A stretch of DNA of 64,000 nucleotides from a virus (Duplodnaviria; Caudoviricetes): positions 2,008-66,007 of the IMG/VR virus record IMGVR_UViG_3300042569_000831; one strand, written 5' to 3'. Below are positions 1 through 63,000 of this stretch, one piece after another. The notes under the pieces were generated by a model. The model was given only the letters and a program-made list of their open reading frames with translations, did not search any database and was not told the DNA's origin. Numbering within the stretch: position 1 is the first letter of the stretch; each line of letters starts with the position of its first letter. The position numbers and the translations under genes were made by a program.

Positions 1-360
1 GATTCTGTTGTTAAGGAATTTTACAATGTTCCGTGCAAGGATTTTGATACTACCTTCGGTGATACTAGAATTTCTGTCAGTTCGGGGGTCCTAAGGTACG
101 TGCATACTTGTCCAAAGTGCGATGTAAAGATTATAAAACAAACAAACACAATAGTAGACAGAACACTAGAGAAGGTTCTCAGAGCCTCTATAGTTACTAA
201 GGATTCTATTATAAGTTCCTATATTAAAGTTATTGCCGAAAGGGATGCTACTATTTCTGAGCTAAAAAAGAAGAACAGGTGGATGACTATTAAGATGGGT
301 GCCGCTTTTGCTTTGTTTATTGTGATATTGTTTAGAAAGTTTTTAATACGCCTGATATGA
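1..360 (+). CDS. 5'-truncated membrane-anchored protein, possible spanin-like lysis protein
   Basis: Frame is open from base 1; coiled coil followed by a C-terminal hydrophobic helix and basic tail. Confidence 0.45.
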   Translation, partial: DSVVKEFYNVPCKDFDTTFGDTRISVSSGVLRYVHTCPKCDVKIIKQTNTIVDRTLEKVLRASIVTKDSIISSYIKVIAERDATISELKKKNRWMTIKMGAAFALFIVILFRKFLIRLI

Positions 361-1085
361 ATATAAAGGAAGTTCACGATGTTATATTGTTCTATCTAAA
401 GAAAGATCAGCAGGGGTTTGTTACTCACGCTGAGATAGATGAAGTATTAGATAGAAGTCAGATGGCGTTGTTTAATAAGTATCACTCTAACCCGGTTGTT
501 TACACTGTACCGGGAAAGAAGGAAGGGTTTGGGTATGGAGATTCATTGAGGATGGACGAGGCTTTGGCTCCGTTTAAATCCAAGTACACTTTCTTGAACG
601 TGGATACTCCTTCGGGAATTATAACACTTCCATCTAACCACATGCATATAATCTCATTGTACACTACTACCTACGTGCAATCATTGGCAAGAAATGTTTA
701 CAATGCTATACAGGTATTAAACGAGGAGGAGTTGATTGATAGGCTTAACAGTCAGGTTATTCCTGTTAGTATTGACGACCCTGTGGCGATATTAAATTCT
801 AACAAGAAGATTCAGATGTTCCCGGAGCAGCCTGCGAGTGGAGCGGTTTTCTATTTTAGAAGACCGGCAGTGCCGAGGTTTGGGTACACTGTAAGCGGTA
901 GAACTATTACTTATGTTTCTACTCAGTACGATGCGACTACTAATCCTAATGGGTCGCAGGAGTTAGAGTGGAATGAATTAGACAAGAACAATGTAATTAT
1001 TGAGGCATTATCTTATTATGGAATTAATTTAATGTCTTCTGATATTGTGCAATTTGCTGAGAATAAAATAAATCAAGGACAATAA
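357..1085 (+). CDS. tail ring/adaptor protein (crAss-like)
   Basis: Starts a run of overlapping ~200-250 aa ORFs before the nozzle gene; 'EIDEVLDRSQ...YFRRPAVPRFGY' resembles podovirus ring proteins. Confidence 0.6.
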   Translation: MNIKEVHDVILFYLKKDQQGFVTHAEIDEVLDRSQMALFNKYHSNPVVYTVPGKKEGFGYGDSLRMDEALAPFKSKYTFLNVDTPSGIITLPSNHMHIISLYTTTYVQSLARNVYNAIQVLNEEELIDRLNSQVIPVSIDDPVAILNSNKKIQMFPEQPASGAVFYFRRPAVPRFGYTVSGRTITYVSTQYDATTNPNGSQELEWNELDKNNVIIEALSYYGINLMSSDIVQFAENKINQGQ

Positions 1086-1699
1086 TGACGACCCGCTACA
1101 AAATTTATGAACAAATTCAGAGGCTTTTGTCAGGCAATCCTATTATTAGTGGGCGTGTTCAAAAGAATGATATAAAGTTATTGATTGGGCAGGTGTCTAA
1201 TAAGCTATTAAAGGCTGAGCACTTTTCTATTAATATGCCTGAGGGAGATAGTATTCCCCCGAACTGCATGATTTATACCTACGAGTCGGTTCCTGTAGTT
1301 TCTTATGGTACCGGCAAGAGTAAGTGTACGCTTCCTTCAATGCCGATTAACCTACCTAAGAATGTTGGCGTATTCCATATCTCTAAGACTAACGCATTGG
1401 ACGAGCCTTTTGTTCCGATACCATCAGGGCTTTACGGTATCATAAAGCCGCAAAGTTTATTGGGACAATTAAGTGGATTGATAGGTTACGAGGTTTACGG
1501 GAGCACAGTTATATTTACTCAGGACCTTCCTGCAAATGGTGCTAATGCTGTATTTATGAGATTGGTTGGTGTTGATATTGAATCTGTTGATGACTACACT
1601 ATCCTTCCGATAACAGCAGACATGGAAGCGGATATTGTTACTACTGTATATCAAATATTAGTTGGATTGCCTGTGGCAGATAAACAAACGAACGATTAA
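1085..1699 (+). CDS. tail ring/tubular protein
   Basis: Position and translational coupling (TAATG) within the tail operon. Confidence 0.5.
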   Translation: MTTRYKIYEQIQRLLSGNPIISGRVQKNDIKLLIGQVSNKLLKAEHFSINMPEGDSIPPNCMIYTYESVPVVSYGTGKSKCTLPSMPINLPKNVGVFHISKTNALDEPFVPIPSGLYGIIKPQSLLGQLSGLIGYEVYGSTVIFTQDLPANGANAVFMRLVGVDIESVDDYTILPITADMEADIVTTVYQILVGLPVADKQTND

Positions 1700-2460
1700 T
1701 GAAAACATACACAATAGATAATATAGTTAGGCAAACCCTGACAGATCGGGGGTACACAATGCATTGGTATTTACAATTCCTTAATTACGCTATTAATGCA
1801 CTAAGGGAGTTGAATTTTGATACATTGCAGAATGTGAAGAGTGTTAGGATGCCGGTAGATTCTATAGGTGCCTTAAAGCTTCCTTGTGACTACGTGGACT
1901 TTATTCGCATAGGTAACGAGCTTGGGGAATTTATTGACCCATACGTTCAGCGAGAAGCATTTAATAACATGTACAGATTTGACGAGAACGGAAATAAAAC
2001 AAAGTACGATAATATAGATGCAGCTTCCGGGTACTTTCCGGCTAACTACGATGGATTATTTTACTCTAACTATGCCAATGATAAGGGCGAGTTGACCGGT
2101 AGGATATTTAATGGCCAACCTTCGCTAAGACATTCATTTAAAGTAATCAAAGAAAGAAACGAAATACAGTTGGATATTACCTTTGCTAAAAGCACGATAG
2201 CTTTGGATTATATAACTGACGGGACTAGTGTTGATGCTTCTAATGCAGTTCATCCTTACGCCATTAATACGATTAAGGCTTTCATAGTATGGCAAATGAA
2301 AGAGCATAATAGGTATTATAATTTATCGGAAAGAGAAACTAGCAAGAACATTTACTACAACGAATTAAGAATACTCAGAGGTAGATTAAATTCTATGGAT
2401 GATGTTGATATTAGAAGAAGCCTTGCAGTGGCTTATGGTCCTACAATTAAAATGGCATAA
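1699..2460 (+). CDS. tail ring/tubular protein
   Basis: 'LKLPCDYVDFIRIG' motif typical of crAss-like ring proteins; coupled TAATG. Confidence 0.6.
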   Translation: MKTYTIDNIVRQTLTDRGYTMHWYLQFLNYAINALRELNFDTLQNVKSVRMPVDSIGALKLPCDYVDFIRIGNELGEFIDPYVQREAFNNMYRFDENGNKTKYDNIDAASGYFPANYDGLFYSNYANDKGELTGRIFNGQPSLRHSFKVIKERNEIQLDITFAKSTIALDYITDGTSVDASNAVHPYAINTIKAFIVWQMKEHNRYYNLSERETSKNIYYNELRILRGRLNSMDDVDIRRSLAVAYGPTIKMA

Positions 2461-5400
2461 TGGCAATAACAAAAAAAATATTATTAGGTGGTATTAACTC
2501 TGACGATGTAGAGCATATTATAGATACGAAAGATTATCTTAATGCGCTTAATATGAGATTTATTACCAACGAGAACGGCAAGGCCGGTAAGATGTCTGCT
2601 GTAGAAGGTACCGTTATGAAGAATGCTTTGTTCAACGGGGCTACTACTATTCCATTTGTACTACCTGCCGGGACCAATACTACCATTGGTGTTGTTGAGG
2701 ATTTCAGAAGAAACAGAGTAATATTTTTCAATAAGAACTCTAATAATAACAACGGCATATACTGCTACGATTATTTAGCAAATGTTGTTTATAAGGTTGT
2801 TGACTACTCTCAGGTTGTTGGAGGCTTGGAGTTCGGGAGTGATATACATTCGTGTGCAATTATGGGCGATGTGGTGTATTGGACTGATGGTGATACGCCT
2901 CAGAAAAAAATAAACATAGAAGCAGGTATTAAGGGTAATCATCCTTCTTACGTTTCCGATTATGCTGCATATACTTTCCCTATGGCGGCTAGTGTATTGG
3001 GTTTAGTTAGGAACCAACCTGCATACCCTTTATTGGCATCTAAGTCGAATGACGCTGCGTACTTAAATAATTTTATTAAAAACGAAGCATTTCAGTTTTG
3101 CTACAGATTTGTTTACAGGGATTTTGAAGTAAGTACGTTTTCTCCTTTATCTATTTTGCTCAACTACAATCTAAGTGAAAGCAATCTAAATAGAATAGAA
3201 ATAAATATACCTACTGCTCAAAAAATACAACAAGACGTAATACGAATAGAGATAGCGGTTAAATACGTTTACGGTAATAAATACAGTATTGTAAAGGTTT
3301 GGGATTATTTAAAGGATGCAACTGCTATAGCTAATCATAATTCAGGAACCGCTACTGCGTTAAGGTATTATTTTTATAACGACACTATCGGGGTATCTGT
3401 AGATGATGCAACTGCTACCAAGCCATTTGACTCTATACCGTTATTATCTGAGACTTTGGAAATAGCTAAGGATAGATTATTCTTAGGAAATAATACTGAT
3501 GGATACGCTTCTCCTTCTACTACTTCCCTTTCCAATAGCTTGAACACAACGTCAGGAACTACTCCTACGGGGCAGTGGTATCAGATTCAGTATTACAAAA
3601 TATCTGACCCTACTGCTTACTATGCTTACGTTTTAAAAATAACTAATATTCTTGCGGAAGGATATTATATACCCTCTATAGGAGGTCCATTTGAAAATAC
3701 TCCGCTACCTACTAGTGTGGACTTTAATACTTATATTAGAATTGCTACTGATGAAGATAGCCTTAGGAATTATGTAGATGGTGGTCTTGGTGGTATTAAA
3801 GCTACTGCGGTAATATCTGTAACACCTTACACTGCTACGATTACAAATGCCCCGTCATCATCGGGATTGGTAGGCAAGACAGTATTTAAGAGCGATTCTT
3901 ATTATAAATTAGGCGTAGTTTTCTACGATGAAGCGGGAAGAAAATGCGGCGTTGTGACTAACGATACTGCTAGTACTAAGGCTGTAATACCTGATAGAAA
4001 TTATGCTTCTATTACTTATACAGAGAGTGTAAATTGGACATTATCTAACGCATCCTCTGCTATAGAAATTCCTGATTGGGCTAGGTATTACGGAATAGTA
4101 ATGACTAAGTGTTTGAGAACTAATTTCTTTATGCAGGCACGGGCTGATTATGTTGGGTATATTTCTAAGGATTCTACTACCGGAGAGTTTCAAGCGCCGG
4201 TAACTTCTTATAGTGCTACTGCTTATGGGATAGTAGTACAGGCTAAGAGTCTTAATAGTTTTGGGATAGGGTATGCTTACCAAGCAGGAGATATTTTAAA
4301 ATTGTATAAGTCGGGCGTTACTACCGCTCCATTATCACTTGCTGTTAAAGGAACTTACTCCGACTATGTTATTGTAGAACTTAAGGATATAGGATTAACG
4401 GGATCTACAAATTACTTCTACGAGTTATATACCCCGTACACTTTAAGTTTTAACGAGTATTATTACGAAACCGGGAATACTTATTTGGTGAATAATCCGG
4501 GAACTCCTAGTAGGTCTTATAGTTCGTTAACCGGAACTATAACCGGTGACGTGACTATTCTTCAAAGAAACACTTCTTATTTAGTTGAGGCGATGTCTCC
4601 TAATGATACTTATTGGAAGAATTGGATAACTAATGCGGGAAGAGTTAACATTGTAAACGCAGGGAAACAGACTAAAAAAAGAACGTCTGTCTATTTTAGT
4701 GATGTTAGGATACTTGGTACAGAGTCAAACGGACTAAGTTCTTTTGACGCCCTGAATCAATACGAATTACCTTACGAATTATCGGCCGTTAGAAAGCTTC
4801 AATTAGTAAACAAAGTAGAAACGGAAGGTACTTTAATGTTGGCTATAGGAGAGAACGAAACCGCTGTTATGTACTTGGGCGAGACTCAGGTGTTTGACAA
4901 TACCGGGTCTTCATTCTTAGCTAAGAGTTCGGGGGTGATAGGTAATGTAAATGTTCTTAGGGGAAGTTACGGAACTATAAATCCTGAGAGTGTTTGCAGG
5001 TTTGCCGGAAGTGTTTATTGGTTTGATGCTAATAAGGGCTGCATGGTAGCCTTTAACGAAAGCGGGTTGAATAATATTTCTGACATGAAAATGTTTAACC
5101 ATTGGAAGAAGGTGGGCCAAGATATTTTAGCTAACGGTAAAAAGATATACGGAGGAATAGATCCTTACAACGGTGAAGTGCTAATGTATGCGCCTTACAA
5201 ATCAGTTATACCTGTAGGGATTATATTGAGCGATACTATTGTTAGTAGTACTAATCATTCGTACTCGGCCGGAAGCGGGTCAATAACACTGACATTAACT
5301 TCTGATTGCACTTATACTATATCTTCTACCAACAACGTTACCGTAACTTATGCCGGGGAAACTATTACAAATGCCGGCAGTTCGGGGGTGTTCGTGGCAA

Positions 5401-6020
5401 GAACAGGAATAAACAACATATCTGTAACTGCTGCTGCTTCCGGGACTATAACATTGAATTTAATACAAGAATCTATATACGATACGTATAACGCATTAGA
5501 CGCAACATGGGGTTATTCTATTGCTAATAACAGATGGGAAACTAAATACAGCTTTAAGCCTGATTGGATGAACATGGTTGGCAATAGGTTGATTAGTTTT
5601 TATAATGGCATTCCGTACATACACAACGGACCGATAAATAACTTCTACGGCAGGGTGTACGACAGTGCTGTAGCTGTGGTTCATAGCGAAGGAGGTAATT
5701 CTATTAAGGTTTACAAGTACCTATCAGTAGAGGGCGATACTCCCGACTACGTTCATATTAGGACCGAGATACCTTACGTACAAAGCACTGACATATTAAA
5801 AGATGAATTTGTTATAAGGGAAGGCGTTAATTACGCTGCAATTAAAAGGGACAGATTATCACCAAACGTTACCGGTACTTATGATAGCAAGATGTTTACC
5901 GGTGATCAAATGAGAGGTGAGGTGGCTAAGATTATGATTGTGTACAAGGCGCCTACAACCAAGAAGTCAATTAAGTTTATAGATATAGACTTCGATTTAT
6001 CAATAGGACAAACAGTGTAA
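2460..6020 (+). CDS. tail nozzle/muzzle (stabilization) protein
   Basis: 1186 aa; N-terminal 'GGINSDD...YLNALNMR', 'RLFLGN', 'GVVFYDEAGR', 'YGTINPES' are characteristic of crAss-like/P22 gp10-type nozzle proteins. Confidence 0.75.
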   Translation: MAITKKILLGGINSDDVEHIIDTKDYLNALNMRFITNENGKAGKMSAVEGTVMKNALFNGATTIPFVLPAGTNTTIGVVEDFRRNRVIFFNKNSNNNNGIYCYDYLANVVYKVVDYSQVVGGLEFGSDIHSCAIMGDVVYWTDGDTPQKKINIEAGIKGNHPSYVSDYAAYTFPMAASVLGLVRNQPAYPLLASKSNDAAYLNNFIKNEAFQFCYRFVYRDFEVSTFSPLSILLNYNLSESNLNRIEINIPTAQKIQQDVIRIEIAVKYVYGNKYSIVKVWDYLKDATAIANHNSGTATALRYYFYNDTIGVSVDDATATKPFDSIPLLSETLEIAKDRLFLGNNTDGYASPSTTSLSNSLNTTSGTTPTGQWYQIQYYKISDPTAYYAYVLKITNILAEGYYIPSIGGPFENTPLPTSVDFNTYIRIATDEDSLRNYVDGGLGGIKATAVISVTPYTATITNAPSSSGLVGKTVFKSDSYYKLGVVFYDEAGRKCGVVTNDTASTKAVIPDRNYASITYTESVNWTLSNASSAIEIPDWARYYGIVMTKCLRTNFFMQARADYVGYISKDSTTGEFQAPVTSYSATAYGIVVQAKSLNSFGIGYAYQAGDILKLYKSGVTTAPLSLAVKGTYSDYVIVELKDIGLTGSTNYFYELYTPYTLSFNEYYYETGNTYLVNNPGTPSRSYSSLTGTITGDVTILQRNTSYLVEAMSPNDTYWKNWITNAGRVNIVNAGKQTKKRTSVYFSDVRILGTESNGLSSFDALNQYELPYELSAVRKLQLVNKVETEGTLMLAIGENETAVMYLGETQVFDNTGSSFLAKSSGVIGNVNVLRGSYGTINPESVCRFAGSVYWFDANKGCMVAFNESGLNNISDMKMFNHWKKVGQDILANGKKIYGGIDPYNGEVLMYAPYKSVIPVGIILSDTIVSSTNHSYSAGSGSITLTLTSDCTYTISSTNNVTVTYAGETITNAGSSGVFVARTGINNISVTAAASGTITLNLIQESIYDTYNALDATWGYSIANNRWETKYSFKPDWMNMVGNRLISFYNGIPYIHNGPINNFYGRVYDSAVAVVHSEGGNSIKVYKYLSVEGDTPDYVHIRTEIPYVQSTDILKDEFVIREGVNYAAIKRDRLSPNVTGTYDSKMFTGDQMRGEVAKIMIVYKAPTTKKSIKFIDIDFDLSIGQTV

Positions 6021-8206: not shown

Positions 8207-11200
8207 ATGCCGGATAAAATCAAGGATTTTTTTAAAGCAGAGATAGCACCTACAGGTTTATTTAAAAGTGAAGACGAGTTTAGAACTTATATTTCAGATC
8301 CAAAGAATGCAAGTAGCTTCTATGAGTCGGAAGTAAAGCCGGTTGGACTTTTCAAGGATGCAGAAGAGTTTAATAGTTTTTTAGGTTTAAAAAAAAACGA
8401 TGGTTTGGTTTCTCCTACACAAAATCAGCAAGAGGTTTTACCATCAAATTTGGCGCCTACACAATCAAGTGTACAAAATCCAAGAATAGAGCCAAGTCAA
8501 GAAGAAGATCTTAGCTTGCTTTCTGTTGATGAGCTTTCTAAAAGATACAATAAATCAAAGGAAACTATTAACGCATACAAGGAGCAAGTAGATAAATTTA
8601 AGCAAGAAGGAGAGAAAGGTCAGGTTAGGTTAAGTGGTGTTGCTAATTTGTATAATTACGAAAACAACAACCTAAAGAATATTGCTGATGCGTACAATCA
8701 AAAGATACAGCAGAAAGCACCTAAGACCCCCGAACCGGCACCTCAGGCACCTACGCTTTTAGCTAAAGTTCGGGAGTACCAAAAGATTGCCAATGCTCCT
8801 GTAACTAAGGATTACGAGTTGAACTCTATGGGCGACTTGGATGAGGTTGATAATCCGGCTAGTTTAAAATCTAAGGAGAACGCTAAGGTTGAGTACGACA
8901 AATTAATAAAAGAATACGCTACTACTACAGGAATATCTGAGGATGATTTAAAGCAGACCTTGAATGATTTCCCTAAGATAAGTGAAGACCAAAAGTTAGT
9001 TGATTATACTAAGCAAAGATTAGAAAACCCTGCTGCCTATAAAAGACAAAAGGCCGCTTCTAGTTGGAGTAATGGGCTGAATGATGCGCTTGTTGATTAC
9101 AATCAAAAGGCAATCGCTGAAAATAAAAAGCCTCCTATTGGTAATCCTGTTAGGTTTGCTAATCAAAAAAGAGAAGACCTTAAGGTTATATTAAAAGGAG
9201 CTAATCCTTATTCTCAGTTTATTAATTTTACTGAAAATCTTAGAAAAGAAATAAGCTATTTGCCAAACGAGGTGGTAAATGGTATTATGAAAAATGTAGC
9301 AATAGAAGGCCAAGGTATATTGGAAGGCGCTCCCGATAAGGACCAATATATAAGTAGCGACCCTAAAAGTAAAAATCTTAATAAGTATCAGGTAAGTTGG
9401 TTGAATAGTATTAAAATATCCGACCCTGATTTATACAAAAACAGAACTAGGTTATTGTCGGTACCAATGTCTAAGCTAGAGGAGCAATCATCTGCTAAAA
9501 ACGAGTTTAGTTCTTTAAGTCCAACGTCTGCTATTGGCGCAAGTAAAGCTGCATCTGCCGCAAGAAATCAAAGATTAGCTAGTGAGAGAGTTCAGTTAGA
9601 AGCTGAGGAGGGTGGTATTAGTATGGCAAAAGAAGATAAGACTGAAAAGTTAGACGACTTGATAAGAAAGTCTAAAACTACAGGTATTACTCAGCAGGAG
9701 AAAGAAGTGGCCGATCAGTTGATTGTTGATTTGAATCAATTAGACAAAGACTCTAAGGCGTTAAATGAAAAATACCCATTAGCTACCAAGGATAGAGACG
9801 ATCAGTTATTATTCTCGGCTACCGGTGGTGAATTAAATAGAGCGGAAAGGTTTGCAGCAAAAACAGTTAAAGGATTTGATAATGCTCTTGGATTTATTTC
9901 CGATATAATATCAACCCCTTTCATGTCAAAGGAGCAAAGAGTTATTCAGGATTTGGACGAGCTCGGGGGAAAAAGAAGATTTGAAACTAAAACAGCAAGA
10001 AAGCAGGATGACATTGTTGTAGGCAACTATACTATCAATGCGACTCCTGAGTTTTTAAAATACATAGAAGAAGTAGACAACGACAAGTCTTTGACGTTTG
10101 AGCAAAAGCAACAAAAGAAAAGAGACAAATACAGAGAGGATCCGTACCTAATAACAATTAAGCGAAACGATAATGCGGGTGATTTGTTATTTACTAGCGA
10201 AACTGTATTGAATGCCGTAGAGGATTTTGGGTCGCAAATATTACCGCAACTTGGATTGAGTGCGATTACCGGAGGTGGTGCTGCTATATCTAAGCTAAGA
10301 AGTCTTTCTACTTTATTTGGAACTACATTTGCTTCGGGATACAAAGACAATTATTTATCTGCCGTAGAAGAAGGGGACGCTGCGCCATCTACAACTGCAT
10401 TTAGGAATACCTCAATTGACGCCTTGTACGAATTGATTGGTGATGACTTAGCAATGGTTAAGAAGGTATTTGGTAAAGCGAGTGGATCTATAGGTAAGCT
10501 AGTAAATAGTATTGACGAGGCGGAGTGGAATAAAATATTGTCTAAAAAAACAGGAGCATTTAGAGCGGTAAAAAACGTAGCTAAATCTTTTGGCAAGGAC
10601 GTGTTACTTGAAGGAGCAAAAGAAGCTACCGGTGAGGCTGCTGCCGCAGGTACTACTTCTTATTTAGATAATAAGGAAGCTTACGAGCCAATGAAGACTG
10701 CATTTGTAAATACATTTGTAGGCTCTGTTGCCACAATGGGATTGGGTACCGTGTTTAATTACAAGAATATTACAAGAGCAGAGAAGTACGCAATGTACGC
10801 TGCCGGTGCAAATTCTTCTGCTTACTTGGCCGATATAGATGAAAGCTTAAAGAACGGTACAATTACCGAAGACGAGGCTAATAAGAGAAGGCAAGTTATT
10901 CAATCAATGTCAAACATTGTTAATGAAATGCCTAAAGTAGATGGTATGTCGGACAATGAAGTAGTTGACTTTGCCTTTAACAAATACATTCAAGAGCAGG
11001 CGGGTAAGGCTGAAAAGGTTATACCTGATAACGCCAAGGTAAAGGAGTTGGTTCAAAATTTAAATAACGAAAATAATAATATAATCAATGCCGCTACAGA
11101 AAGCACACAACAAGCAGGGTCTACAGAAAGCAATATCGGCCAACCTACGGGAACTTTACAAGGACAACAAGAAGTTGGAGAAGGGCAACAAGGGGAAGCC

Positions 11201-42127: not shown

Positions 42128-42382
42128 ATGAAAAAGCACACTAAAATTTACTTTGACTACTTCGGCCACGGTGAGCAATCCTTCGTTCCGTGCGAGGTTT
42201 GTGGAATGCGTGCAAATGACATTCATCATATCGAAGCTCGGGGGATGGGTGGTAGTAAAGAAAAAGATAATATAGAAAACCTTCAAGCCTTGTGTAGACC
42301 ATGCCACATAAACTTTGGCGATAAAAAACAACACATGCAGTTTCTCCGTGATATTCACGAACTTCGATTGAAAGTGATTTAG
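42128..42382 (+). CDS. HNH endonuclease
   Basis: CEVC...DIHHI...NLQALCRPCH; start reassigned to ATG 42128. Confidence 0.9.
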   Translation: MKKHTKIYFDYFGHGEQSFVPCEVCGMRANDIHHIEARGMGGSKEKDNIENLQALCRPCHINFGDKKQHMQFLRDIHELRLKVI

Positions 42383-54133: not shown

Positions 54134-54961
54134 ATGAAAAAAACGAAATTGTATAACAATTTGCCTGACAAGTTGTTAAAAAAAATGTTGCTTAAACCGG
54201 GGGAGAGAGTTGTCTACAAGTTATACAACATTACTTCCGCTCCAATGGACCCAACTAGATTAGCCATCCCGGCCTATAGGAATGTTCCGCCGATTGATCA
54301 GATTTACGATAAAGAATCAGAGTCGTACATTGACATTGCTGCCGTAAAATCGGTAGACGCAGAGGGTAATCATACCTTCCATGATATTTACTTCACATCT
54401 CAGCAAGCCGGCCACATGATCCTGTTCGGGGGTAGAGCTGTTGATCAGGAAATTCACAGTTACTTATCATTATGTAATCATAATGCATCCAATAAAGACA
54501 GGGACACTACAAAAGAAGTTATATTTGAATTGGTTGATGAGGAAGCTAAAGCAGAAAAAGAATCTACCACACGTAATAAGAAGCGTGACGCCTTAAATAT
54601 TGCCGCTGATTTAACTCCGGAAGATGTTAAGGATTACACTGCTGCATTGGGTAAGAGCGAAGACAGGCCAATTAAAGTTCTTAGAAATGAATTAGAGGCC
54701 TTGGCGGATAGAGATCCTGAGGAGTTCTTAAGCTTGATTAATAACAAGCAAGCTGTAATGAAAGCTACCATTAACAGGGCATTAGCTAAAGGCGCTATCT
54801 TATTCTCAGAAGAGCAATCTATGTACAAGTGGGCGAACGGAGAAGCTATCCTCACTGTTGCACGAGGAACAGAAGCGATTGACGAGTTTGTTTCATTCTG
54901 TGTTAGCTCTGCTAAGGGAGAAAAAGTATATCAAAATTTACAATCAAAATCAAAAAAGTAG
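54134..54961 (+). CDS. conserved crAss-like protein downstream of the capsid gene
   Basis: Helical C-terminal half 'LRNEL..LA..DPEEFL'; conserved position. Confidence 0.55.
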   Translation: MKKTKLYNNLPDKLLKKMLLKPGERVVYKLYNITSAPMDPTRLAIPAYRNVPPIDQIYDKESESYIDIAAVKSVDAEGNHTFHDIYFTSQQAGHMILFGGRAVDQEIHSYLSLCNHNASNKDRDTTKEVIFELVDEEAKAEKESTTRNKKRDALNIAADLTPEDVKDYTAALGKSEDRPIKVLRNELEALADRDPEEFLSLINNKQAVMKATINRALAKGAILFSEEQSMYKWANGEAILTVARGTEAIDEFVSFCVSSAKGEKVYQNLQSKSKK

Positions 54962-55093: not shown

Positions 55094-57217
55094 ATGCCAA
55101 CAATAGCAAACGTTTCATTTAATGTGAAGTTCGACTTAACGGGAGTCCCTTCTCTTGTTCTTACGGACACTACATCGAGTGCTCCTACAGGATTGGTTGG
55201 AATATTTGAAATTACTCAACCTGACAAATACACCCGTTCGGGGGATATAAATTCACCTGACGTTTCATCTGCCGGTGATGATTTTACTTACCCATTAAGA
55301 TTAGATTCTTTAGGTAAAACACAATGCGGAACTTATACAATTAAATACACGGCTAACGCTCCGGGGTATTTATCTACTGACTTTACTAGAACATTTGTTT
55401 TTCAATACGTAGCTTCTGAATTAGTTTTAACAGAAGATTTTGATGTTTTTACCCCCGAACTGAGATATTTAGACGATACTGTCTACGCTCAATCGGGTTA
55501 TACAAATTCTAGCGTATCAAGAAGTTGGTCCGCAATATCTACCCCTACCGGTACAATAACCGGAACGGCTCAGATATTTGACATGAAGTATAATACTAAA
55601 TACTACTCTGCTGTATATTCTGTTAGTTTAACTTCTGCTTTAACTTATACAAGCACAACGTACCCTTGGCTTACAATACAAGAGTCTTTATCGGGAACCG
55701 CTTCTTCTTGTGCGGGCGTTCCTCCGGGAGTTGAAGAAATTATTCAGCAGATTTCTGATATAAAATTAGAGTACGATAATAGTGTTAATGCATGCAAGGA
55801 AAGAGTTGATTTAAAGGCTCAGTTTGAATGGGCCGAAACATTATTTCAACATATAATTGACAGGGTTAGTATTGGCGATACTGATAATATATCTAACGAC
55901 CTGTTTGATTTGATTAAGGTATTGAATAATAATCAATACGTATGCAACCCTACTAATGCAATCATACCTCCTTACGATATAAACCAATTAATTAGCTCTG
56001 CTATTTGGGGGTATATAGTTGGAGATATAACTCAACAAACTGATTTAATGTTGCTTCTTGCGCAGAAGCAGGATGATATAACGCTTACTACTATTGGAGA
56101 AAGCGGACCGGCTACTTTTAACCCTACTACTTCTGTTTTAAATATACCTAATTACCAAGGTGGCGTTACTTCATTTAATACTCGTACCGGTGCAATTACC
56201 TTAACAAATGGAGATGTTGTTTCTGCGTTAGGGTTTACGCCTGAAAATGTTGCCAATAAAAGCACAAGTACTAGTTTAGGCACTAGTAATACGTTGTACC
56301 CAACTCAGAATGCAGTAAAGGTTTACGTAGACTCGCAGGTTGCGGGTGCCACTATACCTGACGCTACGGCTACCGTAAAGGGTAAATTAAAGTTGACAGG
56401 AGATTTGGGAGGTACGGCAGATTCGCCTACTGTTCCTGATCTTGCAAATAAAGAGCCATTAATAAGTGCCGGAACCACTTCTCAGTATTGGAGGGGAGAT
56501 AAGAGTTGGCAAACGTTAGATAAGTCTGCGGTAGGATTAAGTAATGTTGACAATACTAGTGATGCAGATAAGCCAATTAGCGATGATACTCAGGATGCGT
56601 TAGATTTAAAAGAAGATGTTGCCAATAAAAGTACTGACGTAAATTTAGGTACTAGTGATACTCTGTACCCTTCTCAGAAGGCGGTTAAGGAGTATGTAGA
56701 CGGTAAGTTGGTTACTAATATAAGATCGGTACAGACTTTTAATGCAACTGCCGGGCAGACTTCGTTTACTATTTCGGGCGGATATACTGTAGGACAGGTT
56801 GATGTTTTTATAAATGGTGATAGGCAGACGAGTTCTGAATACACTGCGACTAATGGAACTAGTATAAGTTTCACTTCGGGATTAGTTTTAAATGACGTTG
56901 TTGATGTTGTTATATACACGGTGTCTACCGGACTGACCGGAACTATGACTGTGTCTACTAGCGGGTTCGGGGATAATATAAGTTACAATCCTATAACCGA
57001 TGTGCTTGTAATTGACAAGTATAATTGGATGGACCTAGCTCGGGGATATACTGTTGAGCCAACTTTGTTTTCATCATCTGCATCAGCAGAGGTTTACGAA
57101 TACGTGTACACAACATCTACATTTTACAGAAACATAAAAACAGACGGAACAGAAGATGCGTTTTATAGCGACAGCGCATTGACAATTAAATTGTGTGATA
57201 AAAAGATAATAATATAA
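55094..57217 (+). CDS. tail hub/fibre protein
   Basis: Fibre repeats 'E.VANKST...LYP.Q.AVK.YVD' x2, 'VGLSNVDNTSD.DKP', 'ATAGQTSF'. Confidence 0.75.
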   Translation: MPTIANVSFNVKFDLTGVPSLVLTDTTSSAPTGLVGIFEITQPDKYTRSGDINSPDVSSAGDDFTYPLRLDSLGKTQCGTYTIKYTANAPGYLSTDFTRTFVFQYVASELVLTEDFDVFTPELRYLDDTVYAQSGYTNSSVSRSWSAISTPTGTITGTAQIFDMKYNTKYYSAVYSVSLTSALTYTSTTYPWLTIQESLSGTASSCAGVPPGVEEIIQQISDIKLEYDNSVNACKERVDLKAQFEWAETLFQHIIDRVSIGDTDNISNDLFDLIKVLNNNQYVCNPTNAIIPPYDINQLISSAIWGYIVGDITQQTDLMLLLAQKQDDITLTTIGESGPATFNPTTSVLNIPNYQGGVTSFNTRTGAITLTNGDVVSALGFTPENVANKSTSTSLGTSNTLYPTQNAVKVYVDSQVAGATIPDATATVKGKLKLTGDLGGTADSPTVPDLANKEPLISAGTTSQYWRGDKSWQTLDKSAVGLSNVDNTSDADKPISDDTQDALDLKEDVANKSTDVNLGTSDTLYPSQKAVKEYVDGKLVTNIRSVQTFNATAGQTSFTISGGYTVGQVDVFINGDRQTSSEYTATNGTSISFTSGLVLNDVVDVVIYTVSTGLTGTMTVSTSGFGDNISYNPITDVLVIDKYNWMDLARGYTVEPTLFSSSASAEVYEYVYTTSTFYRNIKTDGTEDAFYSDSALTIKLCDKKIII

Positions 57218-57218: not shown

Positions 57219-60065
57219 ATGGCATTTGCGTATTCAGCAGCAGTAGCAGGAGTAGGAACAGTAAGTTGTGCAGGAACTACAACCGTAACAGGTTCGGGTA
57301 CTGCATTTGCCATTGGGCTTGGCGGTGCAGCAGGTACTAACCAAGCAAGAGTAGGCGGAACGATTACCGTTGGCGGAGTTACTAAAACTATTGTAGCTAT
57401 TGCATCAGCAACTTCATTAACCGTAGATACTGCATTTGGTACTTTTACAGGGCAAGCCTTTACGGTTCAAACTGAAATTATCCAAACCGGAACAGATACA
57501 ATGAATCTTTCATTAGGTGCCGCAACAGGTATATTAATTACCAATAGAGCAGACCTCCAAAGAACATTTGATGTAAGAGGTTGCGATTTTACTATTAACG
57601 GAATTTTAACAGTAGACAGTACCGTTGCTCAATTACGAAACGATGGAAGTTGTACTAATAGATTTACGGTTAATGGTTCTGTAAGTGGTGGCGAAGTTAT
57701 ATTTAATGGTAGAATAGCGGCTGCCGCAAATGCCCCATTCCCGTATGTAGGATTTGATTGGTTGGGTCAGAATGGGCAAAAGATAATTAAATTAGCGAGT
57801 ACCAACGCTACTTACCCGGCAAAATTCACAATGATTAACGCTGCTGTAAGATTTGGTTCTGATTGGTTAACAACCGATTCGGGTAACTTCTCAAGAATTA
57901 CAACGCAAGGAAATGAATGTTGGATACTTTGTGCAAGAGGTACAGGTACTTCACAAGCACGTTTAAGACAAGACAATACAACCGCTTCAATAGATTTCCA
58001 AGCCGGTCAAACATGGGTAGGGGTATGGCTAAACTTTGGAGTACCTCAATTAAGTTTGAAAGGGTACACTCCAATTAACACAGATGGACCCGAAATTAAC
58101 CTTGCATCAGTTCCGGTAGCTTCATTGATTACAATTGATAATTATAACACAACCCACGTAGTAGCGAACTATTATGCAGGGGTTCAAATAGTTTTATTAG
58201 GTTCTGCATGGACAAGGTTAAAAAACAACTTATTAGGCACTAACATTGCTTGGCGTAGTTCAAGTTCTTCGGGTGGCAGACATAACGTAATTGAGTTCTC
58301 AAAGCAAATTACTATTAAAGTTCAAGATACAGCAGGTAATTTATTGAGCGATGGATATATGTACTATCAGCCCGTTGGTAGTAACGTAGCGGGGGTACGT
58401 GGTAAAGCAATGACTACTGATATTACTTTTGATTTATCCCAACAAAATATTGCAACAGTAGCAGGTGTAGCAACAAGTGAGTTCCGTTTTGCATGGGGCT
58501 TCACAACAGCAACAACAAACCTTAGTACATACGCTTACTTTTGTACAGGGCAAACAAAAGGGGCTGAAACGCATTTGGTTGGTTCGAGCCGTTACGGATA
58601 CGATAAGCAATACATTACAGTAGGATTAGCAGGTAACAACGATGCGACCCCAACTTATGTACATACTTCATTACCAACCTCAAGTAAAGTAATTGCAACG
58701 GCGGCGGCTATTAGTGGTATTGCATTTAACTTTACTACCAAGGTAATGAGTATTACAGGTAATTTAACTTATCAGCAGATTTATGATGCTTATCAATACG
58801 CTCTAAATGTAACCGCAAACTTATTTCAAGCTGATAACTGTTTGACTGCAAATTCAACTTCAAACTATGTAGGTTGGACTATTAATGTAGCAACAGGAGT
58901 TACAATTTCAGCAGGTAGCGGTAACTTCACTAAACTACAAGCACAAACAATAACCTTAACAGGAACGGCTCAAATTACAGGTATCTACCAAGACAGTACC
59001 GGCACTTCAACCGTATTACAAATAAGCGGCTTCGATGCAGGCAGCGCGGTATTTGTAGAAGATAATTTATTCGTACAAAAGTTTTATTCAGCATCAGCAA
59101 GCGGTACGGTTACGGTTTACATTCCACCAACGGGGACGGGCAGTTGGTACTATGCAGTTGAAAAGTATGGTATTCAGAGACAATCTGATTTCTTTACTTT
59201 TAGCGGAGGGTTAAAATCAATAGTAGTAAAAGCAATACCTGATACCGGAATTACAGTAAGCAACAGCGCAACAGTAGCGGCTTATGCGGCATTAGAAAAC
59301 CCGGATAAGATATACGACTACGTGGCTTATCTACGTTTATCGGTACCGCACATTAGTTATGGGCAGATAGTATTTAAAGATGGTACAAGCCTTGACTTGC
59401 AAGATGCATCAATGTTGGTTAATCAATCGTTCGGGAGTGTTGCGAGTTTTGATTACGATACCAAGTTGCTTACTGTTAAATCTTTGATTCTTGAAACAGG
59501 AGTTTCTTATAATAAAATAGTAGCCGACCCGCCTGCAACGGTTACAGCAAATACAAATGAGATTATTACAATTCTTATTGAAGATGCTAATGGAGACTCA
59601 AAGCTTTCTATATTGGGAGGTGATAATTTAGGTTATGAATTATGGAAGGTTACTACTGCTACTGCAACTGACGACTATGCGACAGGAACTTTACTTACTA
59701 CATTAGCTGATAATACATTGTCTTATAGATTCATAGGAATAAGTGGTTTTGATATAGTTGGAAGAGATGTCAGTTCGGGGGTTCGTAGAAGAAGTTCAAT
59801 GCTTAAGGGTACTTATGAACAAGCGTTTTACGTAGGTACACAAATTCAACTTGCAACGGATGCACCTCAATTAATTGAGAATAATCAAAAGTTAGATGAA
59901 TTAATTTTAAAGACTGATACTAATTTAGATGTAAAGGTTAGCACAAGAGCAACGCTTGCTCAAATAGAAAGCAGTACTGTGATTGGCAAAAAGGAAGACC
60001 TAGTAATTATTAACAACGGAGTTAAAAAAGCAAGTAAATTCATTCCACATAACACAAATATATAA
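57219..60065 (+). CDS. tail spike/fibre-associated protein
   Basis: 948 aa, Thr/Gly/Ala-rich beta structure, located in the tail operon. Confidence 0.6.
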   Translation: MAFAYSAAVAGVGTVSCAGTTTVTGSGTAFAIGLGGAAGTNQARVGGTITVGGVTKTIVAIASATSLTVDTAFGTFTGQAFTVQTEIIQTGTDTMNLSLGAATGILITNRADLQRTFDVRGCDFTINGILTVDSTVAQLRNDGSCTNRFTVNGSVSGGEVIFNGRIAAAANAPFPYVGFDWLGQNGQKIIKLASTNATYPAKFTMINAAVRFGSDWLTTDSGNFSRITTQGNECWILCARGTGTSQARLRQDNTTASIDFQAGQTWVGVWLNFGVPQLSLKGYTPINTDGPEINLASVPVASLITIDNYNTTHVVANYYAGVQIVLLGSAWTRLKNNLLGTNIAWRSSSSSGGRHNVIEFSKQITIKVQDTAGNLLSDGYMYYQPVGSNVAGVRGKAMTTDITFDLSQQNIATVAGVATSEFRFAWGFTTATTNLSTYAYFCTGQTKGAETHLVGSSRYGYDKQYITVGLAGNNDATPTYVHTSLPTSSKVIATAAAISGIAFNFTTKVMSITGNLTYQQIYDAYQYALNVTANLFQADNCLTANSTSNYVGWTINVATGVTISAGSGNFTKLQAQTITLTGTAQITGIYQDSTGTSTVLQISGFDAGSAVFVEDNLFVQKFYSASASGTVTVYIPPTGTGSWYYAVEKYGIQRQSDFFTFSGGLKSIVVKAIPDTGITVSNSATVAAYAALENPDKIYDYVAYLRLSVPHISYGQIVFKDGTSLDLQDASMLVNQSFGSVASFDYDTKLLTVKSLILETGVSYNKIVADPPATVTANTNEIITILIEDANGDSKLSILGGDNLGYELWKVTTATATDDYATGTLLTTLADNTLSYRFIGISGFDIVGRDVSSGVRRRSSMLKGTYEQAFYVGTQIQLATDAPQLIENNQKLDELILKTDTNLDVKVSTRATLAQIESSTVIGKKEDLVIINNGVKKASKFIPHNTNI

Positions 60066-63000
60066 TGGGCAAAACAAGAAAGTTAGCGGATTTGGTAAAT
60101 GTAGTAGTCACAGATATGCAAAATAATGTGACATTACCTAAGGCATTAACTATTGGCGAAGTGCCGGCTATTGATGATGATAGCTTTAAGGTGCCCACTA
60201 CTAGTTGGGTAAATGACAAGTTAGTTGGATCTAACATACCGGCAGGTGGAACTACCGGGCAATTATTAGGCAAGCAGTCTAACACAAACTACGACTTTAC
60301 GTGGTTTGATCCATCTTCCCCTGCGTCATTTGCAAGTGTTTTAAAGCACACGGTAAAGGCAGGTGAGGCATTAACTAAGGGACAAGCGGTTTACGTTAGT
60401 AGTGCTGACGGTACGAATATTATTGTATCGAAAGCTTCTAATACTACCGAGCAGGCTAGTAGTAAGACGATGGGTTTGATTGCTCAGAACTTAGCTAATA
60501 ACGGAATAGGCGAGGTTGTTACCGAGGGATTGCTGGCCGGATTAAATACGAGTACTGCTTTGGCCGGTGATCCGGTTTGGTTAGGTGTTAATGGTAATTT
60601 AATTTTTGGTCTTACAAATAAACCATACGCTCCCAATCACTTGGTATTTATAGGTATAGTGACTAGGGTTAATACTAATAACGGAGAGATATTTGTTAAA
60701 GTTCAGAATGGATTTGAACTTCAAGAAATTCACAATGTAGATTTAAAGACTAATGCCCCTGTAAATGGGGAGTTGCTTGGATTTAACGGTGCGTTGTGGG
60801 TGAATAAAACAATTGCCGGTTGGTTGGGTTATACTCCTGCTAACGCTGCTGCGTATGTTCCGTACACGGGGGCTACTACTAATGTTAATTTAGGTTCTAA
60901 TAGCATTACAGCTAATTCGTTTATAAAATCGGGTGGTACTTCTTCTCAGTTTTTAAAGGCGGATGGCAGTGTTGATAGTTCTATTTATAGCACTACTACC
61001 GGGACGGTTACGAGTGTAGCTGCCTTAACGTTAGGCACTTCCGGAACCGATTTGTCTAGTACGGTTGCAACAGGAACTACTACTCCGGTAATTACATTGA
61101 ATGTACCTACGGCTTCTGCTACTAATAGAGGTGCGTTGAGTTCGGGGGATTGGATTTTATTTAACGGAAAGCAAGCTCAGTTAAATGGTACCGGATTTGT
61201 AAAGGCAAATGGCACTACAATTACTTACGACAATAGTTCTTATTTAACGTCTATATCAGGCATTACTGCCGGGGGTGAACTTTCAGGAACATACCCTAAC
61301 CCGACATTGGTTAACAGTGCTGTTACAGGCAAGTTATTGACCGGGGTTAATATTACCGGGGGAAGTATTGCTGCTACTGATAGCATATTGACCGCATTTG
61401 GCAAGGTTCAAAATCAAATTAATAGTTTAGTTGGCGGGGTTAACTACCAAGGTACTTGGAATGCTAGTACAAATTTGCCTGCGTTGACTAGTAGTGTTGG
61501 TACAAAGGGGTATTATTATGTTGTAACTACTGCCGGGACTACAAGTTTGAATGGTATTAATGATTGGAAGTTAGGTGATTGGGTTATTTTTAATGGTACA
61601 ACATGGGACAAGGTTGACAATACCGATTCGGTTATATCGGTTAATGGATTTACAGGGGCGGTTAGTTTAACTACTGATAATATTAGCGAAGGGTCTACAA
61701 ATTTATACTACACAAATGCGAGAGTTCGGGGGGCTATAGGTTTAACCACAAGTGGTAGTTCAGGTGTAGCTACTTATACTGCTTCAACAGGAGTTTTAAA
61801 TATCCCTACTTATACATTAGCAGGATTGGGTGGACAACCATTACTTACCAACCCAACCACAGGGACAGGTACTACCAACTATGTAACTAAGTGGACAGGA
61901 ACAAGTGCGTTGGGTAATAGTCAAATATTTGATAATGGTACTAATGTGGGGATAGGGACGGCTTCGCCAACCACTAAAACACAGATAACAACTAATTTAG
62001 GTGGAACTAATCCTTCAACATATACAGACGTATTAACAATAGGAGTTTCTAATGGACAAAATGAAACCGTAAAACCAAATATTGGAAGTTCATTAGTATT
62101 CAGAGGTATTGAATATTATAACCAAGAATTTGCACTAGCAAGAATAGCGGCACAAAAAACATTAGCAGATTGGAATGGGTTTTTGACATTTCATACTAAT
62201 CCCGGTAATCAAGATGGAACTACAACCGAACGCCTCCGTATCACCTCCGCAGGTAACGTAGGTATAGGAACTGCTTCACCTGCTGAAAAACTATCAGTTG
62301 CAGGAAATATATACCAAACAGGAGATACATATCGGATTAAAAATAATTCTTCAAATGTTTCATACATAAGAGCAGAAGAAAATACAACAACTGCTGCATA
62401 TACTTATGTTACTATGGATGGTAGGTCTACTGGTTATTATGCTATTAGCACTAACGACATTGAACGTATGCGTATAACCTCCACAGGCAACGTAGGTATA
62501 GGAACTGCAAGTCCAACAACAAAATTGCACGTTTTAGCAAATAGTGCAGCAGATGAGGGCAATGCAGCTGTAATTATAAGACAAGGAGGTGGTAATAATA
62601 ATAACGGATTATTAGTAGACGTTACAAATTCTGTTAATGCTTACATAGCTGATTTTAGACAAGCTAATTCGTCTTTAATGAGATTGACTGGCGCTGGGAA
62701 TTTAGGTATAGGAACTACTTCGCCTGCTGATAAATTAGAAGTAGCAGGTGTAGCAAGATTTACAGGTTCAGGAGGAAGAAGTGTTGTTGTAAATGGAACA
62801 AGCAATGGTAGAATAGATATTAATGGAGATGGCTCTACGTATGCCACAGGGATTTTATTTAATAGTCAACTTGGCGGTACAGCATTAAGTGGAATATGGA
62901 ATTTTGGCAGCGGAACAAGTCAGCAATGGTTAGCGTTGGGTGGTACTGCATACAACACTTCAGCAATGTACATATTGCCTTCAGGTAACGTAGGTATAGG

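Follow-up and report, generated by a model that had tools for sequence, protein, structure and literature searches.

The phage genome and its sites

The window analysed here, a 64-kb stretch of a 66-kb virus record (IMG/VR, full length 66,007 bp), belongs to a crAss-like phage of Bacteroidota from lake water and has a G+C content of 37.5%, where a preliminary description of the same DNA had assumed about 35%. The phage and its clade are probably temperate, and an integrase is found in six of the seven relatives compared (G001, G002, G004, G411, G416 and G417; not G412). The phage codes for an exonuclease and annealase pair, the sole Gam-like match being a weak, sub-threshold one to Mu Gam in the tail of the exonuclease ORF. 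It also codes for two Mom-family ORFs, ThyX and a dCTP-deaminase-like gene. Among the ORFs searched, no DNA polymerase was recognised and no methyltransferase or DpdA-like gene was seen. The first gene of the late block (41945..42382, +) encodes a small HNH endonuclease, a candidate reader or nickase. A PD-(D/E)XK endonuclease gene (44467..44832, +), present in the clade genomes compared, is a further candidate, and the ORF directly upstream of terL (45499..46089, +), a possible small terminase with no family match, is a candidate for a role in packaging. The minus strand carries the gene for a primase-helicase with Zn-ribbon, Toprim and DnaB-like parts (25583..27304, −). A megablast search of isolated phages with 12 kb of the sequence gave no match. 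Contigs from four further public runs cover the 20 kb tested; these contigs place the phage in lake-water samples and make strain differences visible. Among the contig ends listed, about 4 of about 58 fall within about 30 nt of a site, against about 4% expected, which is not counted as evidence.

The 9-mer GTTCGGGGG and its variants GATCGGGGG and GCTCGGGGG are scattered over most of this DNA. At the left end, GTTCGGGGG lies in sense within ORF 1..360 (80..88, +), the sole site kept in five of five aligned relatives, and within ORF 2460..6020 (4927..4935 and 5380..5388, both +), and antisense within ORF 1085..1699 (1256..1264, −); GATCGGGGG lies within ORF 1699..2460 (1744..1752, +). The 2989-aa ORF has an antisense copy of GTTCGGGGG at 8727..8735 (−) and sense copies at 12211..12219 and 15831..15839 (both +), together with GCTCGGGGG in sense at 9961..9969 (+) and GATCGGGGG at 11519..11527 (+). 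The copy at 15831 is the final one ahead of an empty stretch of 8.6 kb; the gap noted earlier is real and runs from 15.8 to 24.4 kb. The next copy is intergenic (24414..24422, −) and supplies the 3' arm of a hairpin (GCCCC..GGGGC) with TTTT behind it. ORF 24830..25165 includes GATCGGGGG (25094..25102, −), and the primase-helicase gene has, in sense, GTTCGGGGG at 25978..25986 (−), where relatives encode other residues, and GCTCGGGGG at 27035..27043 (−). Antisense copies of GTTCGGGGG follow in ORF 28052..28345 (28096..28104, +) and in the Rad52-like gene (29956..29964, +), while the integrase gene carries two in sense (34084..34092 and 34683..34691, both −) and an antisense GCTCGGGGG (33866..33874, +).

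An intergenic copy of GTTCGGGGG at 35276..35284 (+) adjoins a terminator-like hairpin on the minus strand and is part of repeat families D4/D6. The early region contains GTTCGGGGG at 36926..36934 (+; within a doubtful plus-strand ORF, repeats D4/D6/D7) and 40349..40357 (+; intergenic, repeat D4), and GCTCGGGGG at 38970..38978 (+; repeats D4/D6/D7) and 39782..39790 (+; intergenic, repeat D6); a further GTTCGGGGG (41188..41196, +) lies in the ORF-free 1.3-kb stretch preceding the late block. To the right, GCTCGGGGG occurs in sense in the HNH gene (42236..42244, +) and in ORF 43968..44474 (44172..44180, +). terL has a sense GTTCGGGGG at 46528..46536 (+), where relatives have an opposite-strand variant 5 nt off, and a GATCGGGGG at 47772..47780 (+). 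The remaining copies are all GTTCGGGGG: in ORF 50510..51691, one antisense (50571..50579, −) and two sense (50924..50932 and 51582..51590, both +); in ORF 54134..54961, one in sense common to G411 only (54424..54432, +); in ORF 55094..57217, one sense (55236..55244, +) and one antisense (55452..55460, −); and, all in sense, one in ORF 57219..60065 (59773..59781, +) and two in ORF 60065..63346 (61140..61148 and 61724..61732, both +).

A selected DNA word with absolute polarity

The 27 copies of GTTCGGGGG, 19 on the plus and 8 on the minus strand, agree exactly in coordinates and strands with those listed in the preliminary description. The excess is stronger than was claimed there, since 100 dinucleotide-preserving shuffles give a chance expectation of 0.16 (sd 0.39, largest 2). 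The roughly 11 variants G[C/A]TCGGGGG are likewise confirmed as 11 (7 GCTC and 4 GATC; 9+/2−), with 0.12 expected. The full consensus, [C/G][A/G]G[T>C>A]TCGGGGG, occurs 38 times (28+/10−), one copy per 1.7 kb. Across all 66,007 bp of the record, no other 9-mer is as common as GTTCGGGGG and no other 8-mer as common as its 8-mer core; the 2,007 bases of the record beyond the window contain no copy. Even the minor strand in the window is about 100-fold enriched (8 exact copies, about 0.08 expected).

The word resides in DNA rather than in codons or protein. When synonymous codons were shuffled within each ORF 500 times, the mean total was 4.42 (maximum 7), a figure that takes in the 4 intergenic copies, which were left unshuffled; within genes, 23 copies are observed against about 0.4 expected. 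A codon-usage artefact is thereby ruled out. So is a protein-level repeat, as the copies are 17 sense, 6 antisense and 4 intergenic and occupy all three codon phases. Nor is the word an assembly artefact, an objection raised earlier: 13 virus records that stem from different assemblies have it too, with matching polarity, and contigs of the four further runs cover the 20 kb tested.

The lean towards the plus strand noted in the window extends to the whole clade. Among 155 non-redundant sites from eight genomes, 125 lie on the terL-carrying strand and 30 on the other, and this polarity of about 4:1 is absolute, whatever the local gene direction: rightward genes give a ratio of 77:16 and leftward genes one of 40:13, so that in leftward territory 40 of 53 sites are oriented against the genes. 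The in-gene sites are spread evenly over gene fifths (21, 24, 18, 22 and 22), sites within 200 nt upstream of a start (17 of 106) compare with 13.6% of random positions, and only 1 of 19 terminator-like hairpins touches a site, which together rule out a late-promoter or terminator element. With its survival of codon-preserving shuffles and its conservation as a word across the clade, this polarity bears out the earlier proposal of a selected DNA signal; selection acts on the word itself, at the level of DNA, in one clade of freshwater crAss-like Bacteroidota phages.

About three quarters of the sites are within genes. Intergenic DNA holds more than its share, 32 of 139 sites where non-coding DNA makes up about 7%. 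The early region immediately ahead of the late block has a cluster of copies, and the intergenic ones there are embedded in longer repeats and hairpins, which could mean a binding or regulatory site in place of a nick site. The word might thus be the dispersed binding site of a phage DNA-binding protein, either a stoperator-like repressor or a small-terminase or condensing protein that marks self for packaging. The probably temperate lifestyle of the clade is in line with such a protein, as is the ORF upstream of terL, kept at 48–76% in the clade and at only 25% in the motif-less G005. In the available text of PMC6550527, the stoperators of Cluster A mycobacteriophages are 13-bp asymmetric sites found genome-wide in similar numbers per genome; the word resembles them in its asymmetry, similar length, tens of copies per genome and occurrence in temperate phages. 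Stoperators, however, all point one way with respect to transcription, and they drift in step with their repressor (PMC6550527), whereas the orientation here is absolute and the 9-mer core is identical in every clade member. The high share of in-gene sites also speaks against a binding site, and the small ORFs on either side of the integrase lack conservation in the clade; no repressor was recognised. We regard this explanation as unlikely.

The spacing of the sites bears on a second explanation, in which the word is a polar replication signal: the T7-gp4-like primase-helicase would start or load there by preference on the template of the lagging strand, and the strand bias would reflect a predominant fork direction that agrees with late transcription. 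Because a primase reads only one strand and the fork sets its direction, absolute polarity would result; the enzyme is conserved at 54–66% in the clade genomes compared, and the lack of a recognised DNA polymerase among the ORFs searched may be added. The mean spacing on the major strand, 2.4–4.4 kb, is of the order of Okazaki-fragment length, and the variable core, G-[T/C]-T, would correspond to the template triplets GTT/GCT of T4 primase. That likeness is prone to coincidence, since the same five bases also fit the Mu Mom target, and known Toprim primases read trinucleotides; we know of none with a site of 9–11 nt. The spacing is also Poisson-like (CV 0.71–1.18), with major-strand gaps of 9–20 kb that do not suit obligatory priming sites. 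A replication signal of this kind seems quite unlikely.

Distribution among relatives, hosts and metagenomes

Every relative examined with a portal identity of at least 68% has the word. The 13 related records counted are all enriched and polar (G001–G004, G411, G412 and G416–G420, with L198 and L318 by locus), while the more distant G005 and G413–G415 have 0 copies, and no substitute word was found in the four profiled out-group records (L005 and G413–G415). The positions of the sites are another matter, with 31 of 42 aligned sites private to one genome. As judged from these alignments, it is the word that is kept, and its positions turn over, so that the conservation looked for in related phages holds for the former and not for the latter. 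In G416 and G417, TerL has been swapped (50–51% identity, with the portal at 71–72%) and both word and polarity are kept, which rules out TerL as the reader.

Sites are rare in recently acquired genes, and the cassette region is empty of the word because it is recently acquired DNA. This cassette, with the Mom, ThyX and dCTP-deaminase genes, occurs in this genome only, and relatives without it still have the word. A link between the word and the cargo or cassette proteins, among them the Mom-family proteins, ThyX and dCTP deaminase, is therefore ruled out. More generally, the word could be the target of a sequence-specific DNA modification whose density is protective or marking; besides the cassette genes themselves, its 5' half, S-A-G-N-T, fits what we take to be the Mu Mom target, and the match of CAGTT in the word to that target is treated as coincidence. 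To our knowledge, modification targets are normally neither over-represented nor polar, and no methyltransferase or DpdA-like gene is among the ORFs searched, so that this explanation appears extremely improbable.

The word has several features that are the signature of Chi and similar words: it is G-rich, asymmetric, enriched on either strand at a skew of 4:1, scattered through coding and non-coding DNA alike, subject to turnover and rare in new DNA. A Chi-like or nuclease-taming signal would be read on one strand by host AddAB or RecBCD, the helicase-nuclease entering at a free end of rolling-circle or packaging intermediates, and would protect the phage DNA; the exonuclease and annealase pair, accompanied by no Gam-like match better than the weak one to Mu Gam, would agree with this. 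A host Chi site must be frequent in the host. In the Bacteroidota sampled, 401 genomes drawn evenly and 5 named ones, the word reaches at most 111 copies (one per 32 kb) and usually fewer than 20, and in 5 more-enriched genomes the 11-mer is at control level (5–16 against 5–11). None of the 411 Bacteroidota genomes exceeds one copy per 32 kb, and no host-wide enrichment was found in those searched. All 8 motif-rich viral loci are clade members, which indicates that no unrelated phage shares the word, and at 9–11 nt it is longer than any Chi known to us. On this sample a host Chi site is unlikely, and the Chi-like explanation as a whole is very doubtful. The infrequency of the word in all Bacteroidota sampled suggests instead that its reader would be supplied by the phage lineage itself.

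A metagenome scan for two 11-mers 30–60 nt apart returned 87 stretches, all of which were looked at; the 23 loci inspected in detail were nearly all tandem arrays (unrelated 14–62-nt units) or high-G+C DNA, L198 being the one clade relative. No low-G+C metagenome contig with dispersed copies was found other than a phage relative. A search for the host in 185,579 representative genomes gave no TerL relatives, by single protein or alignment, and no exact match to the 3' half of the phage tRNA-Thr. Among the matches listed in a 14-mer scan of genomes there were only scattered single ones in unrelated, mostly high-G+C organisms. A literature search finds GTTCGGGGG and its complement in 132 papers, and the 20 listed all concern unrelated subjects such as animal viruses and human and mouse genes; crAss-like phages and nick words came up together only in the Pseudomonas study, where crAss-like phages are mentioned once.

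Nick words and the possible reader

The open-ended list of functions in the preliminary description can be narrowed: a nick site or another site for a phage protein appears to fit best, a host Chi-like site is disfavoured, and the cassette link is rejected. Our tentative preference, possible rather than probable, is that the word may be the recognition site of a putative lineage-specific, strand-specific phage nickase, as in Pseudomonas phage tf. Its activity would leave localized single-strand interruptions, mainly in the terL-sense strand, in mature or replicating DNA. The roles proposed for nicks in model phages are recombination or replication priming, and packaging.

According to the available text of PMC3517423, the tf word 5'-TACTRTGMC-3' has 14 copies in 46 kb, all of them nicked and all on one strand in spite of convergent transcription units, with similar positions reported among relatives in the tf group. 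The word WACTRTGAC, in the available text of PMC11780129, has 13 copies that correspond to 13 strand-specific drops in Nanopore depth; 60 related phages are enriched for it although they have very little nucleotide similarity, and 88% of the copies overlap coding sequence at least in part. The word described here resembles these tf-type words, as far as the available accounts describe them, in length (a 9-mer, some of its positions degenerate), in a frequency well in excess of chance (for the tf type, 0.7 expected per 45 kb), in having a strand bias regardless of transcription units, in lying mostly inside genes, and in being shared across a phage group of little nucleotide similarity and absent outside it. 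It differs from them in that about 20% of copies are on the other strand, itself enriched, whereas tf-type copies are all one-stranded; its positions turn over, it is denser (a copy every 1.7 kb, compared with every 3.3 kb for the tf type), and both phage group and host phylum are unrelated. Nicks were shown physically for the tf type and are putative here. In tf, Rembedalsseter, T5 and the phiKMV group, a single strand carries all the sites (available text of PMC3517423 and PMC11780129). The T5 and phiKMV types are likewise strand-specific, sequence-associated interruptions, such interruptions being putative here, and differ in having few sites per genome and, in the available text, no genome-wide over-representation; the consensus is long in phiKMV, at 20 nt, and short and loose in T5.

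A nickase is favoured by the 50- to 200-fold over-representation that does not come from codons, by the asymmetric form of the word (9–11 nt with one or two degenerate positions), by clade-wide enrichment and polarity with none in the out-group, by polarity that is absolute and not relative to transcription, by sites that are not promoter-like, by the exclusion of TerL as the reader, and by the conservation of an HNH endonuclease among the packaging genes. The catalytic candidate would be this small HNH protein or one of the neighbouring PD-(D/E)XK nucleases. Phage HNH enzymes adjoining terminase genes are site- and strand-specific nickases with a specificity of 3–7 bp (available text of PMC3592412). 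The HNH protein is 60–65% identical among the clade genomes compared; its core of about 84 residues is too small to read 9–11 bp alone, so that a partner protein would be needed. A search of solved structures with it gave marginal zinc-finger matches only. No DNA-reading domain is visible in it, which weakens the nickase reading. It is also weakened by the presence of a 42% homologue in the motif-less G415, which makes the HNH protein not clade-specific, by the enrichment of the minor strand with 30 of 155 clade sites, and by the many private sites, which are unlike the positions in the tf group. Strong selection for density is, finally, hard to square with the nicks of T5, which are dispensable (available text of PMC3517423).

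Enrichment on both strands, the 4:1 skew, turnover and scarcity in new genes fit better with a polar 'architecture' signal than with one-strand nick sites. The word might accordingly be compared with Chi or KOPS, as a phage-private signal read by a putative phage-encoded strand-tracking enzyme, which we consider somewhat unlikely. Candidates for its reader would be the primase-helicase and a nuclease that acts together with the exonuclease and annealase pair; the signal would orient or protect a one-directional genome-wide process such as rolling-circle replication or packaging, and would mark phage DNA as self against a host without the word. Skewed architecture words are a property of bacterial chromosomes and their enzymes. 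The word shares with Chi and architecture words that it is G-rich, asymmetric, located in genes, skewed rather than one-stranded, maintained in density and lacking in recently acquired DNA; it differs in being private to a phage clade, rare in the 411 Bacteroidota genomes, and longer.

Few sequence features show how a genome is handled, be it in replication, cutting, packaging or protection, and dispersed polar words belong to those few. A small number of Proteobacteria phages have supplied the only well-documented phage cases, nick words that have resisted explanation for fifty years. A signal of this kind is now found in uncultivated, abundant crAss-like phages of lake Bacteroidota, with comparative data that are unusually rich: they cover at least 14 genomes and 155 independent sites, show clear gain and loss, and include a TerL swap that arose naturally. 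The word is a simple marker for this phage clade in metagenomes, and the analysis narrows the candidate enzymes to a few, one of which may be a rare-cutting nickase. For the question of what these words are for, the clade is a second system, independent of the first.

Copy number, consensus and coding context of the word

The preliminary description listed 27 copies of the dispersed 9-mer GTTCGGGGG, and all of them are present with positions and strands exact (19 on the + strand and 8 on the - strand); the 11 G[C/A]TCGGGGG variants are genuine, too (seven GCTC and four GATC; 9 on + and 2 on -). Dinucleotide-preserving shuffles of the window give a chance expectation of 0.16 copies for GTTCGGGGG, and 0.12 copies are expected for the variants. 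GTTCGGGGG is the commonest 9-mer of the 66,007-bp record and its 8-mer core the commonest 8-mer; the window spans positions 2008–66007 of that record, and the 2 kb outside it have no copy. The minor strand, too, is enriched in the word, about 100-fold. Once the flanks of the 27 copies are compared the word grows to 11 nt, with C (19 copies) or G (7) at position -2 and A (18) or G (6) at position -1; beyond these two positions, the flanks show no relatedness among copies. G precedes every TTCGGGGG, and GTTCGGGAG occurs six times.

When assigned on a simple ORF map of the window, 17 of the 27 copies are sense (one of them in a doubtful ORF), six are antisense and four are intergenic. They are found in all three codon phases, 10 of the 17 sense copies using the Ser-Ser-Gly phase, and the codons that the word uses (TCG, GGG, CGG and CCC) are minor codons in this genome. 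The excess survives codon-preserving shuffling: 500 shuffles of synonymous codons inside each ORF, which left the four intergenic copies untouched, predict about 0.4 in-gene copies versus 23 observed (the total averaged 4.42 and reached at most 7, four being the unshuffled intergenic ones). The word is a DNA signal, and neither a protein nor a codon effect.

Occurrence, polarity and turnover of the sites

All IMG/VR records close to this phage by portal (68–78%) carry the word, and it is kept whether the TerL identity is 69–78% or, in four records (G416–G419), just 50–52%. Counts of the exact 9-mer on the major and minor strands are 8:1, 9:1, 12:1 and 13:3 in the related records G001, G002, G003 and G004, respectively. 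For GYTCGGGGG they are 16:4 and 21:4 in G411 and G412, and 11:4, 12:2, 8:1, 7:1 and 8:1 in G416, G417, G418, G419 and G420. In every counted record that contains terL, the major strand is the one carrying this gene (G420 is a 15.8-kb fragment without terL), and all profiled relatives are enriched in the GCTC form as well. No copy is present in the out-group records G005 (portal 34%; a 22-kb fragment), G413 (TerL 42%; a record estimated to be 56% complete) or G414 and G415 (TerL 38%, both complete), and no substitute word of comparable excess appears in the profiled out-groups (locus L005 and G413–G415). Of 103 viral loci retrieved with a single 14-mer, eight have at least four copies; all eight are clade members, so sharing of the word with an unrelated phage was not observed.

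The lean to the + strand noted earlier extends to the clade. Eight genomes hold 168 sites, or 155 after contexts at least 80% identical were collapsed to one site, and these split 125:30 between the strands. The major:minor ratio is 77:16 where genes run rightward and 40:13 where they run leftward, even though in leftward blocks the G-rich strand is the opposite one. As the same bias holds in both kinds of block, in the leftward ones against the local G-rich strand, the polarity is absolute, and it is independent of transcription and of base skew. Intergenic sites are over-represented (32 of 139, versus approximately 7% non-coding DNA) and cluster in the leftward early region immediately upstream of the late block, pointing rightward; the clustered copies lie within longer repeats, at 35258, 36908, 38952, 39764 and 40342 of the window. 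Terminator-like hairpins touch a site in just 1 of 19 cases, sites are not concentrated ahead of gene starts, and those inside genes are spread evenly along them. On the major strand the sites are spaced in a Poisson-like manner (CV 0.71–1.18, gaps of 9–20 kb).

Conservation of individual sites was scored in codon alignments of orthologues. The word is found in a single genome only in 31 of the 42 aligned site columns and in two or more genomes in nine, the remaining two being alignment artefacts; among the shared columns, one has the word in all five aligned genomes (site 80 of the window), another has it in both of its two genomes, and a third in five out of six. Where a copy is private, the protein sequence often differs at exactly that spot, as in the primase-helicase (25583–27304, -), which has Ser-Ser-Gly here and other residues at the same site in relatives. 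In terL, the word lies on the + strand at 46528–46536, and G001, G002 and G004 bear a GCTC variant on the - strand 5 nt away, the encoded residues being DDRSGG versus DPRAGG. Within this genome, 31 sites fall in 45.2 kb of ORFs with clade homologues and two in 15.4 kb of ORFs without them (P = 0.0017); the empty stretch at 15.8–24.4 kb corresponds to a cassette of low G+C that only this genome has. Selection therefore acts on how many sites there are and which way they point, rather than on their places.

The phage, its genome and the host question

The terminase and portal match PHROG families, and a 1186-aa ORF has a weak match to the crAss muzzle domain. Among isolated phages, those of Flavobacterium and Cellulophaga have the closest TerL relatives; none reaches 60% identity, and the top matches are at 28.8%. 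A Shine-Dalgarno-like word precedes only 2 of 48 ORFs, and the regions upstream of ORFs are A-rich, as in Bacteroidota. Recognised genes encode, among others, an integrase of the tyrosine type, an exonuclease resembling YqaJ/RecE, an annealase resembling Rad52, a Toprim-DnaB primase-helicase and a small HNH protein. No prophage relative was found in the representative prokaryote genomes searched. Near-identical DNA is present in at least 20 public runs from 17 studies, labelled lake water, freshwater or plain metagenome; in 11 of the 20 listed runs, half or more of the sampled words are present, and two may be the source sample.

Several other features of the window deserve mention. The 2989-aa ORF at 8207–17176 (+), with DUF3293 as its sole match, was compared in six clade genomes: five have it at 40–63% identity and G417 at 24%. 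The out-groups yielded no match to it, and, judging by its location, it may correspond to the giant virion protein of crAss-like phages. A 369-aa ORF at 31464–32573 (-), absent from relatives, has a C-terminal YadA-like outer-membrane anchor domain and may encode a lysogenic-conversion surface protein. Two tRNA genes, tRNA-Met(CAT) at 30468–30541 and tRNA-Thr(TGT) at 36227–36297, are on the - strand, and a 14-nt stretch of the T-arm of the latter is repeated inverted at 35267–35280, adjoining a copy of the word. At 36600–38800, five to six copies of a 27–90-nt repeat, one ahead of each small leftward ORF, terminate on the - strand in AAACCTCAAAAAC followed by ATG; they are likely early promoters or leaders, distinct from the 9-mer. 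The leftward early and rightward late blocks are separated by 1.3 kb without ORFs (40627–41944), AT-rich, with palindromes at 41499–41536 and one copy of the word; this stretch may be an origin or genome end region.

The private cassette (17600–24400, 31–35% G+C) has two Mom-family ORFs (19705–20523, E = 6e-58; 21105–21983, E = 9e-15), ThyX (22477–23121) and a dCTP-deaminase-like gene (23864–24397), which suggests DNA modification by this phage alone. Being private to this genome, the Mom, ThyX and dCTP-deaminase cassette is unlinked to the word and was rejected as its partner. That the word might be a modification target ranks fifth among the readings and is very improbable.

On the host side, the word is not frequent in any of 401 genomes sampled evenly across the phylum to which a Flavobacteriales genome belongs, or in five named Bacteroidota genomes (maximum 111 per 3.6 Mb, mostly below 20), and the 11-mer is only at control level in five of the more enriched Bacteroidota genomes. 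Such rarity rules the word out as a chromosomal Chi for the genomes sampled. Chi-like words have the same skewed, two-strand, density-selected pattern as the present word, but belong to hosts, and a signal for a host nuclease is placed fourth, as an improbable reading. A metagenome scan for paired 11-mers returned 87 stretches; among those inspected closely, almost all proved to be tandem arrays or DNA of high G+C, and one was a relative from the clade. The arrays (metagenome loci L213, L226, L232, L249–L252, L255, L259 and others) consist of 14–62-nt units each with (C)AGTTCGGGGG and lie in unrelated contigs of varied G+C, one of 366 kb; they may reflect chance or a shared binding site.

Candidate readers and known systems

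TerL was rejected as the reader, since it is swapped in G416 and G417 with the word unchanged. In these two records (loci L375–L380), TerL is 50–51% identical to that of the window, the portal is 71–72% identical, the ORF upstream of terL 65–66%, and the major structural ORFs are close to those of the window, a pattern resembling a natural exchange of only the large terminase. The clade genomes compared all keep the HNH protein (41945–42382, +; 60–65%), whose core is only about 84 residues (42128–42382), a PD-(D/E)XK nuclease (44467–44832, +), a RusA-like resolvase, the primase-helicase, a protein resembling replication initiators, both the exonuclease and the annealase, the ORF just ahead of terL (45499–46089, +) and several small unknowns. 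Two more PD-(D/E)XK proteins are encoded at 43968–44474 and 24830–25165, and the conserved small proteins include, besides the ORF ahead of terL, those at 28338–28769, 30616–30879 and 43602–43946. A signal for the conserved primase-helicase, third in order, is an unlikely reading.

Among documented cases, the nick word of phage tf, TACTRTGMC, comes closest; PMC3517423 describes 14 copies, all nicked and all on the top strand, in a genome with convergent transcription. PMC11780129 generalises this word to 60 relatives, in which 88% of the copies fall in genes, and outside that group it is not enriched. The present word resembles it in form, excess, clade pattern and independence from transcription, but is enriched on both strands, turns over in position and is denser; the tf nicks were shown physically. 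The public runs that carry the present phage are available as contigs. Phage HNH enzymes adjoining terminase genes are described as strand-specific nickases (PMC3592412). Stoperators, as portrayed in PMC6550527, orient with transcription and drift alongside their repressor, unlike the present word, and a dispersed protein-binding site is the second, rather doubtful reading. The word is a real, strongly selected and strand-polar word of one phage lineage, and the reading placed first, tentatively, is that it may be a site nicked by a phage enzyme.
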